64,000 bases of DNA from positions 26,781 through 90,780 of the forward strand of contig CAKOUW010000004.1 in the NCBI GenBank assembly GCA_934120715.1, given 5' to 3'. Of this stretch, positions 56,404-58,596 are shown in pieces; the stretch's first letter is position 1, and each line of letters opens with the position of its first letter. The stretch comes from an uncultured Bacilli bacterium (GTDB taxonomy: Bacteria; Bacillota_I; Bacilli_A; RF39; UBA660). Below the pieces are notes generated by a model. It made no database searches. It was not told where the DNA came from and saw only the letters and a program-made list of their open reading frames with translations. Both the position numbers and the translations under genes were made by a program.

Positions 56404-57057
56404 ATGGCAGGATCTGGTTTTACTGGATTTAATCCAAGTGCCGTTGAAAATTCTATTCGTGGTGTTATTAGCTCATACAATGAATTAATTTCTTTGCTTG
56501 GAAACGATGTACAAAACAAGGTTATTAATGAAATGCAAAGTGTTTGGGCATGTAAGGAGGCACAAAACTTTTTTGAAGCGTTTGCAGAAAATGTAAATGC
56601 ATTAATAAAAAATGCTAATGATAGTTTTGAATTTGTTGTTGCATCAATGAATGAGGCTGGTTATGAGTGGGCAGTTAGCACTGGTGATGCTAGCAGTTTT
56701 AGAAGAGTATCTTTTAGCCCAAGTTCAACTACTGTTTCAGCAGCTGGTATCCAAGAAAATATTGGTGGTGTGAGAGGAATTAATGTAGGTATGGCTACAT
56801 CTATAGCTAATTTGCTTCCTGGAATCGCTTCATCTGTTGGTAGTGCAGTAGATCAAGCTAGAAATAGTGTTAGCAATTGTGGATTTATTGGTTCTAGTAT
56901 GGAATCAAGCCTTCAAGGTACTTTGGATAGAGTTAAGTCAAGTATTAGAGAAAATATAGAAGTCCTTACTGATGACTGTAAGCAAAAAATTAATTCTACA
57001 GTTTCTAGTTATGGTGATCTACAAGGAAAGGTTGCTTCTTCATTTTCTGCTCAATAG
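56404..57057 (+). CDS. WXG100-like N-terminal hairpin protein (217 aa), candidate T7SS substrate
   Basis: No signal peptide. MQSVWACKEAQNFFEAF occupies the position of the WxG turn (W-A-C). Shares RGINV and FIGS/FIGG blocks with the 357-aa neighbour. SD aaaggagag. Confidence 0.45.
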   Translation: MAGSGFTGFNPSAVENSIRGVISSYNELISLLGNDVQNKVINEMQSVWACKEAQNFFEAFAENVNALIKNANDSFEFVVASMNEAGYEWAVSTGDASSFRRVSFSPSSTTVSAAGIQENIGGVRGINVGMATSIANLLPGIASSVGSAVDQARNSVSNCGFIGSSMESSLQGTLDRVKSSIRENIEVLTDDCKQKINSTVSSYGDLQGKVASSFSAQ

Positions 57058-57077
57058 TTAAAGCAATATGTGATTTT

Positions 57078-57112
57078 AATGTATGTAATATTTATTATTA
57101 CGTACATTTTTT
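57078..57112 (+). terminator. rho-independent terminator after the 217-aa gene
   Basis: ATGTATGTAATA-ttt-ATTATTACGTACAT (one G-T pair) followed by TTTTTTC. Confidence 0.6.
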
Positions 57113-57356
57113 CTTTTAATTAGTTATTTTTTGTATGTACATTTTCAGTTAAATATACTATATGTTAGACAGCCTTAATTATCACTTTGTGAAAATTTAA
57201 AATTCTAGATACTATAATATAATGATCTGTTTTCTAGTCAATATAAAATACCAACTACAAATTTAATTTTGTCGTTCTTTAATACAACCGCGTTATTATT
57301 AATAAATTATTGATCTTAATGATATCTGCATATTTCCATATAAACTTGCATGTTGG

Positions 57357-57388
57357 AGGAAAAAGTTCATGTTTTTTACACATGAACT
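57357..57388 (-). terminator. rho-independent terminator downstream of the 357-aa gene
   Basis: AGTTCATG / CATGAACT stem, 9-nt loop, TTTTT on the minus strand. Confidence 0.5.
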
Positions 57389-57522
57389 ATATATTTTATT
57401 AATTGCTCTGCTTTTGGCTGCTTGAGTTACTAATTTTTAACGCTGATTGTGACTTCACATTTGTCATACACTGGCAAGCAATTTTTCTATCACAGTGCAA
57501 ATAAATTTAAGCCTTTGCTAAT

Positions 57523-58596
57523 TTATTTTTTTTCCACGCAGTTGCCAGTAAGTTGGTCAATCCATTTTTCCGTTATTTTGCCAGTATTATTATCCTTCCA
57601 TGTTTCTTTAATAATTCCCCAATTATCATGAAACTCTCTATGTAATAAAGTTGAATCTGATGCTGAGGAACTGCTAGTACCTGTTGCTGAGGAACTGCTA
57701 GCTCCTGTTGCTGGTGAACCGCTAGCACCTGACATTGCAGCGATCAAGCCTTTCTTATCTGTATACCCCATTGGTACTCCATCTTTGGTTATCAAAACGC
57801 TTCCATCTTCTCTTATCTCATAGTCTAACTTGCCTGATGGTGAGTTCGTCCAGTACTGCTTTTGAATATTATCTTCAGACCAGAATTTTCCATTTAAGCT
57901 GTCTGCTGCATTATTTGTAATTCTGGAGAAGTCAACATTTTTGCTATCTAATGAGAACTTATTTGATGTATTACTTCCTAAATTTGAGTATGTTGCTAGT
58001 GACTTAATTATACGATCATCTATATCACTCTTTGTGGTTTCTAATAAATTATTTATTTTATTTTCTATTTCCTTAAATCCATTTGTTAATTCTTCTATTT
58101 GATTTCCACCTATAAATTCCGTACCTTTTACTTGGTCTTTAAGTTTGCCAATTGATGTCATTAAAGCCTCAAAGCAATTATCTAATACGGTATTAAGTGA
58201 TTCAACTTCCTGGACATTAATTCCTCGTGTACCATCGTCTCTTTGATCTTTTATTGCTGAAACGTCACATTTAGGTATTTCGCCTTTTTCCGTATTAGTA
58301 TTAGAATAGTCTCCTCCTGTTCGTTGCTCCCAACTACGTATAGCTTCTTTTATTTTTACTATATAAGAATAAAATTGCTCAGCCAAATCAGAATATATCC
58401 CATCCATTGTAGGTTTAAATTTATCATTAAAATAATCATAGCCTTCTGGAGTATACCAATTTTGTGCTATTTTAGCAATGTAATTACTATCTAATTCGTC
58501 AATATCCTCCACTATTTCGGCACCAATACCTAATGCACTTATTATTAATTGTTGTGCAGCTTCTAAATTATATCCTGCGTCTATATTTGAACTCAT
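57523..58596 (-). CDS. WXG100-like N-terminal hairpin protein with extended C-terminal region (357 aa), candidate T7SS substrate/effector
   Basis: No signal peptide. IAQNWYTPEGYDYFNDKF sits at the turn position. RGINV and FIGG blocks are paralogous to the 217-aa protein. Has a Ser/Thr/Gly/Ala repeat linker and a Trp-rich C-terminal ~45 aa. Confidence 0.45.
   Translation of the reverse strand: MSSNIDAGYNLEAAQQLIISALGIGAEIVEDIDELDSNYIAKIAQNWYTPEGYDYFNDKFKPTMDGIYSDLAEQFYSYIVKIKEAIRSWEQRTGGDYSNTNTEKGEIPKCDVSAIKDQRDDGTRGINVQEVESLNTVLDNCFEALMTSIGKLKDQVKGTEFIGGNQIEELTNGFKEIENKINNLLETTKSDIDDRIIKSLATYSNLGSNTSNKFSLDSKNVDFSRITNNAADSLNGKFWSEDNIQKQYWTNSPSGKLDYEIREDGSVLITKDGVPMGYTDKKGLIAAMSGASGSPATGASSSSATGTSSSSASDSTLLHREFHDNWGIIKETWKDNNTGKITEKWIDQLTGNCVEKK
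57662..57733 (-). repeat. three tandem 24-nt repeats inside the 357-aa gene
   Basis: gctgaggaactgctagtacctgtt / gctgaggaactgctagctcctgtt / gctggtgaaccgctagcacctgac, encoding SGASGSPA-TGASSSSA-TGTSSSSA. Confidence 0.9.

Follow-up and report, generated by a model that had tools for sequence, protein, structure and literature searches.

Type VII secretion systems (T7SSs) all have, according to reviews, an EssC-type ATPase and a WXG100 protein of ~100 residues that works as a dimer (PMC11217815). WXG100/ESAT-6 proteins, including EsxA/EsxB of T7SSa and the homodimeric EsxA/YukE of T7SSb, are helix-turn-helix hairpins ~90 residues long whose turn holds an aromatic residue. They are acidic, lack a signal peptide, are linked to EssC, have the C-terminal spacing HxxxD/ExxhxxxH, and form an antiparallel four-helix bundle. 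Substrates of T7SSs are known to carry a bipartite signal (PMC10765036). We analyzed a 64,000-nucleotide stretch of DNA from an uncultured Bacilli bacterium (contig CAKOUW010000004.1), here called the window, in which two genes, famA and famB, lie between gap and pgk (Table 1). We found that the family of their products resembles WXG100 proteins in these features, with a predicted bundle and, at the C-terminus, the spacing of the hydrophobic positions, but that each chain has two hairpins with a conserved crossover linker between them. The two proteins are probably single-chain pseudo-dimers of the WXG100/ESAT-6 superfamily, members of an EssC-linked family that are orphans in this genome and candidate type VII substrates.

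The gap-pgk interval of the window is made up of two intact, convergent open reading frames (ORFs), famA (217 aa) on the plus strand and famB (357 aa) on the minus strand, as the original prediction had described. Each has a strong Shine-Dalgarno sequence 7 nt before its ATG (AGGAG at 56392-56396 for famA and AGGAGG at 58604-58609 for famB). The two proteins are paralogous, as had been proposed (BLASTP E 4e-11, 22% identity over 185 residues), and both are acidic. They had been said to lack a signal peptide, and we found neither a signal-peptide-like N-terminus nor a transmembrane segment in either one (maximum Kyte-Doolittle(19) values of 1.2-1.3).

No named family could be assigned to the two proteins in the original prediction, and scans of Pfam and NCBIfam bore this out; they belong instead to a large unnamed family that has no model in either database. 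A word-indexed search found nine relatives. Searching 1.84 billion representatives exhaustively with a profile gave 530 clusters (at 50% identity) at E <= 0.001, including 144 at E <= 1e-30. Nearly all members are 210-220 amino acids (aa) long, and a minority are 260-430 aa. Record titles name uncultured gut "Bacilli" or "Tenericutes" metagenome-assembled genomes, Clostridium sp. CAG:417 and Candidatus Onthousia, which we take to correspond to the RF39 group.

We determined conservation from an alignment of 126 full-length members (famA numbering is used throughout). W48 is invariant, and G8, A53, F57, G125 (97%), F161 (95%) and L170 are conserved in at least 90% of members. G122 is conserved in 89%, F214 in 85%, Y203 in 84% and [IV]210 in 74%. 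These residues fall in four motifs: M-x3-W-A-[CS] at the first turn, I-x-E-N-I-x-G-x-R-G-I-[DN] preceding helix 3, [SC]-G-F-x-G-G-x-Q at the second turn, and T-[VI]-x2-Y-G-D ... [IV] ... F at the C-terminus. Conserved blocks that had been noticed from the two paralogues alone (G-[VT]-R-G-I-N-V, C...F-I-G-[SG] and Y-[GS]-[DN]-L) coincide with family columns G122, R124, G125, F161, G163 and Y203.

AlphaFold2 predicted a four-helix bundle for both proteins. The famA model, made with the family alignment, is confident (pLDDT 87.9, pTM 0.84), with helices at residues 11-45, 51-92, 128-159 and 164-203. The famB model (pLDDT 79) has helices at 11-46, 50-93, 128-155 and 166-214. In both models the first hairpin has a Trp in its turn, as had been anticipated from the sequence. 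Beta structure in the famA model is confined to residues 47-48 and 120-126. From this we infer contact between the conserved linker block and the Trp turn of hairpin 1, with helix 3 beginning at that end of the bundle, which gives a predicted up-down-crossover-down-up topology.

We compared each half of the family to a profile of WXG100 proteins, built from 27 proteins of ~100 aa from genomes of the same class. With hhalign, the N-terminal half reached 89.9% probability (E 1.7e-6) in an alignment to this profile that pairs W48 with the W of WxG. For the C-terminal half the probability was 82.8% (E 9.4e-6); here F161-x-G163 falls on W-x-G, and the Y...F stretch at the end of the family proteins falls on the C-terminus of WXG100. 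In a search of Protein Data Bank (PDB) sequences with a 10-sequence profile nothing fell below E 0.01. ESAT-6 itself (3fav_B, E 0.014) was among the best PDB sequence matches of the family profile, and its residues 8-88 aligned to profile positions 9-92, placing W48 on W43. When the 126 members were scanned singly, 21 matched Pfam WXG100 below threshold (best E 1.5e-5), seven matched EspC, nine matched DUF5344, and there were many weak matches to helical families of the apolipoprotein type. In addition, an ad hoc WXG100 hidden Markov model (HMM) matched both halves of long and short members that are neighbors.

The turns and the C-terminus resemble those of WXG100 proteins in part. Across the family, hairpin 1 has the invariant W with C/S or T at the G position, and hairpin 2 keeps the G and has F in place of W. 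Turns of the form [H/L/F]-x-G are known in the partners of WXG100 gene pairs (PMC3935865). The hydrophobic positions of the HxxxD/ExxhxxxH motif, the C-terminal pattern that we used for comparison (PMC3935865), are present as Y203, [IV]210 and F214 with 4-3-4 spacing; only 21% of members have E at the acidic position.

Two 220-aa proteins from the same bacterial family have two canonical W-x-G motifs each. One (L044, from G014) passes both PF06013 and TIGR03930 in two stretches, and the other (L045, from G003) is at the Pfam cut-off. The family HMM aligned to them end to end, at 26 and 18 bits. These two proteins constitute another family of single-chain double WXG100 proteins, more orthodox than that of famA. 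They resemble the famA family in length, in the two-hairpin layout and in their position near EssC (L045 is directly downstream of EssC in G003). In contrast, neither of them has the G-x-R-G-I linker block or the F-x-G turn, and the similarity is limited to the 18-26 bits given above.

Based on the profile alignments, the ESAT-6 and Pfam matches, the tandem W-x-G proteins and the motif spacing, the second half of famA and famB is a crossover linker followed by a second WXG100-like hairpin. The original prediction had described two-module proteins with a WXG100-like hairpin followed by a module of no known kind. The hairpin stood, in register with WXG100; the second module is not an unknown add-on but a hairpin with an F-x-G turn. 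We also considered whether the two hairpins are recognizable as internal repeats. They are not; a duplication was not apparent by hhalign of the N-terminal against the C-terminal half (29%). A separate observation is that the linker and hairpin 2 (profile positions ~109-203; 56730-57012 in famA) gave recurring sub-threshold matches to needle-tip proteins of type III secretion, with the G-F turn aligned (PDB 2p7n, E 0.0097; IpaD 2jaa, E 0.032; TIGR02553, E 0.0022 with member P0012). Although they recur, these matches probably reflect similarity in helical composition.

Relatives of famA and famB are linked to EssC. Of 201 sampled genomes of the order, 104 have EssC and 10 have the family; EssC is present in each of the 10. 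Besides the genome of the window (G000), nine genomes of the order have the family, and in six of these a family gene is less than 5 kb from EssC. We gathered 20 further species-level loci with a 25-member alignment. In 15 of these, EssC or its small downstream gene lies on the same strand less than 10 kb away; in the other five, the upstream sequence is shorter than 3.2 kb. Usually EssC comes first, followed by a gene of ~85-98 aa and then the family gene. Metagenome contigs L001, L002 and L107 have the same linkage. We refer to the EssCs that neighbor the family as type B; the one in L075 passes TIGR03928 at 946.2 bits (cut-off 778.4 bits). In several type-B clusters (L001, 8740-12491; L006-L009; L107, 8231-9319) the family gene is followed by conserved genes of ~187, 97 and 75-80 aa, and these clusters also have a protein of 647-747 aa (with a weak DUF676/lipase match in L002).

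Long and short members of the family are neighbors in several places: in L001 (236 and 214 aa), L106 (384 and 213 aa), L107 (221 and 426 aa), L108 and the window. The pair in L107 is immediately before EssC.

The genome of the window (1.15 Mb, 93% complete) has a single EssC, ~45 kb from famA and famB, as had been noted. We call it type A. We found no match to PF06013 (WXG100), PF10140 (EssB/YukC) or LXG in this genome. For YukD, PF08817 gave only an off-target match of 13.7 bits; EsaA and EssA were not included in the search. The 85-aa gene straight after EssC, in the position of EsaB/YukD, has homologues (29-52% identical) after EssC in 19 loci and is conserved at every EssC examined, and its homologue in L001 has a weak UBL match. 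The family's EssC elsewhere is only ~40% identical to the resident one, and famA and famB are thus orphans here, which the resident EssC may export. Despite this mismatch of lineages, the genes are kept under selection in two species that have only a type-A EssC (famA in G341, famA and famB in G000).

Several observations weigh against placing famA and famB with WXG100 proteins and type VII substrates. Neither protein on its own had more than chance-level helical matches in Pfam and NCBIfam, with no WXG100, LXG or NCBIfam match even at E 10, and neither reached the cut-off of the curated WXG100 profiles (PF06013/TIGR03930). The hhalign probabilities are suggestive rather than decisive, and the two halves do not detectably match each other. 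At 217 and 357 aa with two hairpins per chain, the proteins differ from the ~100-residue WXG100 proteins with a single dimerizing hairpin. The first turn is W-A-C in famA and W-Y-T in famB, without the canonical G of WxG, and the acidic residue of HxxxD/E is missing from both (Q207 in famA, G in famB) and mostly gone from the family. The genes are far from the only EssC of the genome, and the type-B EssCs are ~38-41% identical to that EssC; in S. aureus, EssC variants set substrate specificity (PMC5994694). The structural matches described below have Z scores (9-11) in the range usual for any helical bundle, and so indicate topology and not kinship.

It is possible that famA and famB are not exported and are instead intracellular accessory proteins of type VII secretion, either targeting factors or chaperones like Lap, EsxBCD or EsaE, or regulators of EssC. 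Small helical WXG100-like partners that merely escort LXG toxins are known (PMC10765036, PMC10801868), and the conserved genes of ~187, 97 and 75-80 aa that adjoin family members could be the real cargo. However, there is no cargo gene next to famA and famB in the window: those three genes and the 647-747-aa one are not adjacent to the pair (this concerns the neighborhood; the rest of the genome was not searched). The family also holds the slot behind EssC and the small gene, the usual place of esxA-type genes, and famB has C-terminal modules of its own behind a disordered linker, as substrates do. We consider an accessory role quite unlikely.

The gap-pgk site varies among related bacteria. 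The original prediction held that gap and pgk are normally adjacent and suggested looking at the interval in related genomes. In three genomes of the same genus (G340, G344 and G342) the two genes abut and the site is empty. In two others (G068 and G026) it contains a complete type-B module: EssC, a 90-aa gene, several ~100-aa WXG-like genes and, next to pgk, a protein of 152-157 aa that resembles the C-terminal half of the family and has the linker block and an F-K-G turn. The cluster in these two genomes (L075, 5138-12130, from G068; L076 from G026) is co-directional with gap and pgk, and its ~100-aa WXG-like genes number five or six. In G061 nothing but a W-Q-G protein of 107 aa and an F-x-G protein of 142 aa is encoded at the site. 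In the closest relative of the window (G341) it contains famA alone, 74.5% identical and likewise inverted. The DNA of G341 resembles that of the window up to 60 bp past famA and no further, indicating that famB and its flanks are extra in the window. The site thus ranges from empty to an EssC cluster, two Esx-like genes or fused genes. A type-A EssC is present in every genome of the genus tested, with or without the island.

The 142-157-aa proteins match the C-terminal half of the family better than the N-terminal half (20-25 bits versus 6-12), and the ~100-aa W-x-G proteins have no clear preference for the N-terminal half. It is suggestive only, but the 107-aa and 142-aa genes of G061 could be a split form of the fusion.

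Given this variability, famA and famB could be leftovers of a type-B island that was lost from gap-pgk, either no longer exported and without a present role in secretion, or co-opted for something else. G068 and G026 have a whole EssC cluster at the site, G000 and G341 have only the fused gene or genes along with one type-A EssC, and in L109 (6056-6733, plus strand) a transposase of the IS91 family (Zn_Tnp_IS91, E 1.7e-19; Y2_Tnp) adjoins the famA ortholog on the pgk side. On the other hand, the ORFs are intact with strong ribosome-binding sites, and the same convergent arrangement of famB, famA and pgk is found in another sample (L108), with a famB-like gene directly after gap in L104 and L105. 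In addition, dN/dS between G000 and G341 is 0.23 for famA, compared to 0.10 for pgk and 0.04 for gap. That is, famA is under purifying selection. We give the leftover explanation a slim chance.

We also compared the models to known structures. The best matches are bundles of the ferritin/Dps type with up-down-crossover-down-up topology, at Z 9-11. Foldseek found no match in the PDB at E <= 0.001, and wide structure searches with VIA-align found only generic helical bundles. For famB the VIA-align match list was filled by the bundle, so these matches concern the bundle and not the C-terminal modules. The longest structural alignments were to EspB (168 residues, Z 9.2 for famA; 196 residues, Z 8.8 for famB with 4wj1_A). 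EspB of mycobacterial ESX-1 (4wj1, 6xzc, 8ako) is a type VII substrate that, like famA and famB, has four helices in a single chain with WxG-type and Y-type motifs on one polypeptide, and it has a low-complexity C-terminal region. In contrast, it has no sequence similarity to them, its Y motif is in the first hairpin and its WxG in the second, it belongs to a PE/PPE-like lineage of Actinomycetota, and the Z score is not above the helical-bundle background.

An unrelated four-helix bundle (ferritin/Dps-like, apolipophorin-like or similar) with no connection to type VII secretion would agree with these top structural matches and with the many weak Pfam matches to apolipoprotein-type helical families. 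A ferritin-like metal site is excluded, however, because famA lacks His altogether and its conserved columns hold aromatic or small residues (W, F, G, A, Y), along with L, and not the Glu/His ligands of a di-iron or ferroxidase site. The strong gene-neighborhood link to EssC and the in-register WXG100 matches also argue against an unrelated bundle, which we regard as very improbable.

The extension of famB has three parts (Table 1). The first, of ~75 residues, has strands at 257-280, forming a three-stranded sheet, and a helix at 281-289 (pLDDT 63-76). It is common to P0013, P0122, P0074, P0101 and P0119 (identities of 31-96% to the individual relatives, each across its shared region; E 2e-9 to 8e-102). 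The last part has strands at 315-323, 328-335, 341-347 and 353-356 (pLDDT 76-93). Beyond the ~75-residue module, long members of the family differ in Ser/Thr/Pro-rich linkers and small aromatic-rich tails. The module, the linkers and the tails of long members had no Pfam match. A Ser/Thr linker and a Trp-rich C-terminus of ~45 aa had been recognized in famB from the sequence, and both are there; the ~75-residue module (216-290) had been missed. Pfam gave no support to the idea that the C-terminal aromatic-rich repeats are cell-wall-binding repeats. In a FastTree phylogeny of the bundle domains the extension-bearing members were not recovered as one clade (support of 0.73 for the clade that spans half of the tree).

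LXG toxins of T7SSb, with their Lap or WXG100-like partners, also have an N-terminal helical targeting part and variable C-terminal extensions, and small helical genes are nearby in full clusters. It is hardly credible that famB is an LXG-like polymorphic toxin with N-terminal targeting and C-terminal toxic domains, since, although a helical N-terminal domain with variable C-terminal extensions recurs in the family (260-430 aa), neither the two proteins nor the rest of the genome gave an LXG (PF04740) match, the C-terminal modules span just ~45-75 residues without a Pfam match, no adjacent small gene fits an immunity role, and the 75-residue module is conserved and not polymorphic. In addition, the bundle is self-contained and not completed by a partner. 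The original prediction had proposed T7SS substrates or effectors. The substrate part agrees with the likeness to WXG100 and with the EssC-adjacent relatives; for the effector part there is neither a toxin-like domain nor an immunity gene.

We return to famA and famB as probable single-chain pseudo-dimers, and propose how they might work. Each chain, with two helix-turn-helix hairpins joined by a crossover linker of ~35 residues, would fold alone into the antiparallel four-helix bundle for which ordinary WXG100 proteins need pairing. The Trp turn of hairpin 1, the G-x-R-G-I block and the C-terminal Y-x3-x-x2-[IV]-x3-F of helix 4 are predicted to lie at one end of the bundle. That end would be the place of the bipartite signal, WxG plus export arm, of known type VII substrates. 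Given this topology and the known signal (PMC10765036), the turn, linker and arm may act as the recognition surface. The four-helix unit would be what EssC-type machines export, and famB would carry small beta modules outside the cell, the extension being either cargo or a part for surface retention. The two paralogues may also interact. In a stripped-down type VII locus found in uncultured gut Bacilli, the family supplies the conserved gene that comes next after EssC and its small neighbor; the pair in the window is an orphan copy at the variable gap-pgk site.

One can go further and imagine that, in a lineage with reduced genomes, the obligately dimeric EsxA was replaced by a covalently fused pseudo-heterodimer, making a portable and self-sufficient export module. 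The pair at gap-pgk would be an orphan of this kind, exported by a non-cognate EssC; the long form would display its beta modules at the surface, as an adhesin or surface protein and not a toxin; and the pair of genes in G061 would represent the unfused ancestor. Taken as a whole, we consider this scenario unlikely.

A widespread and unannotated family from uncultured gut Bacilli thus appears to provide the four-helix unit from one chain, in a host genome with no profile-detectable WXG100, EssB or LXG protein. A limited literature search, which does not prove that none exists, gave no account of WXG100 proteins in tandem or fused form, nor of type VII secretion among bacteria of the RF39 type. 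If exported, the proteins would be a natural "single-chain Esx". With the two halves of the bipartite signal held on one polypeptide, they would help to find out which bundle surface is read by EssC. The orphan genes raise the question of cross-recognition between EssC lineages, and the gap-pgk site displays what may be stepwise evolution of a secretion island, from empty to full system, split pair and fused orphan or orphans. The family merits a profile of its own, as present annotation pipelines label its members hypothetical.

Table 1. Coordinates of famA, famB, their parts and related features in the window.
Feature	Position	Strand	Evidence or remark
famA (P0001), 217 aa, predicted single-chain double WXG100-like four-helix bundle	56404-57057	+	ORF and ribosome-binding site; AlphaFold2 model
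famA hairpin 1 (residues 11-92), turn M-x3-W48-A-C	56434-56679	+	W48 codon 56545-56547
famA crossover linker (residues 93-127)	56680-56784	+	conserved block, residues 116-127, at 56749-56784
famA hairpin 2 (residues 128-203), turn [SC]-G-F161-x-G163	56785-57012	+	turn at 56881-56892
famA C-terminal "export-arm-like" stretch Y203-x3-Q-x2-V210-x3-F214	57010-57045	+	
Bidirectional terminator-like hairpin between famA and famB	57364-57388	.	9-bp stem, T-rich tail on both strands
famB (P0002), 357 aa, same predicted bundle with C-terminal extension	57523-58596	-	ORF and ribosome-binding site; A2 HMM E 2e-39; AlphaFold2 model
famB four-helix bundle (residues 1-215)	57952-58596	-	W47 codon 58456-58458
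famB conserved ~75-residue module (residues 216-290), small beta sheet and helix	57727-57951	-	
famB Ser/Thr/Ala/Gly-rich disordered linker (residues 291-312)	57661-57726	-	pLDDT < 50
famB Trp-rich C-terminal four-stranded beta module (residues 313-357)	57526-57660	-	
pgk, downstream flank of island	55007-56179	-	
gap, upstream flank of island	58733-59737	-	80-97% identical in congeners
EssC (type A), 1524 aa, only one in genome	7004-11578	-	FHA and FtsK_SpoIIIE; TIGR03928 1019.9 bits
85-aa gene straight after EssC, EsaB/YukD position	6737-6994	-	no YukD Pfam match

Several other features of the locus are recorded here. A run of minus-strand genes extends from ~28.9 to 61.5 kb, and famA is the sole plus-strand gene in it. 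Each gene of the pair had been assigned its own terminator, but the scan found one shared bidirectional hairpin between them and no terminator-like site between gap and famB. A search of 55900-59000 against Rfam gave no match, and base composition across the island has no anomaly. An 18-codon hydrophobic mini-ORF (57369-57425, plus strand) overlaps the terminator hairpin. It begins M-F-F-T-H-E-L, ends L-L-L-A-A, and has GGAGG at 57355-57359, 9 nt upstream. It could be a chance occurrence in AT-rich DNA or a small membrane peptide.

In the region around the type-A EssC, two ORFs of ~68 aa predicted to be helical are found after EssC on the minus strand (6523-6726 and 6321-6530). They matched the ad hoc WXG100 HMM weakly (E 0.084 and 0.015) and may be miniature Esx-like partners of the type-A system. 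Upstream of EssC, the minus strand from 11860 to 20166 encodes zinc-ribbon membrane proteins of 230, 271, 143, 224, 286 and 425 aa, along with a 560-aa protein that fits no family and a trypsin-like peptidase of 575 aa. These may be lineage-specific membrane parts of this stripped-down type VII system. Between the type VII region and a DUF2207/LemA pair is a radical SAM/SPASM enzyme (21054-22115, minus strand) that adjoins a 97-aa ORF (20752-21045) and a double-HTH regulator (20288-20722, plus strand). This region, 20288-22115, may be a peptide-maturation locus.

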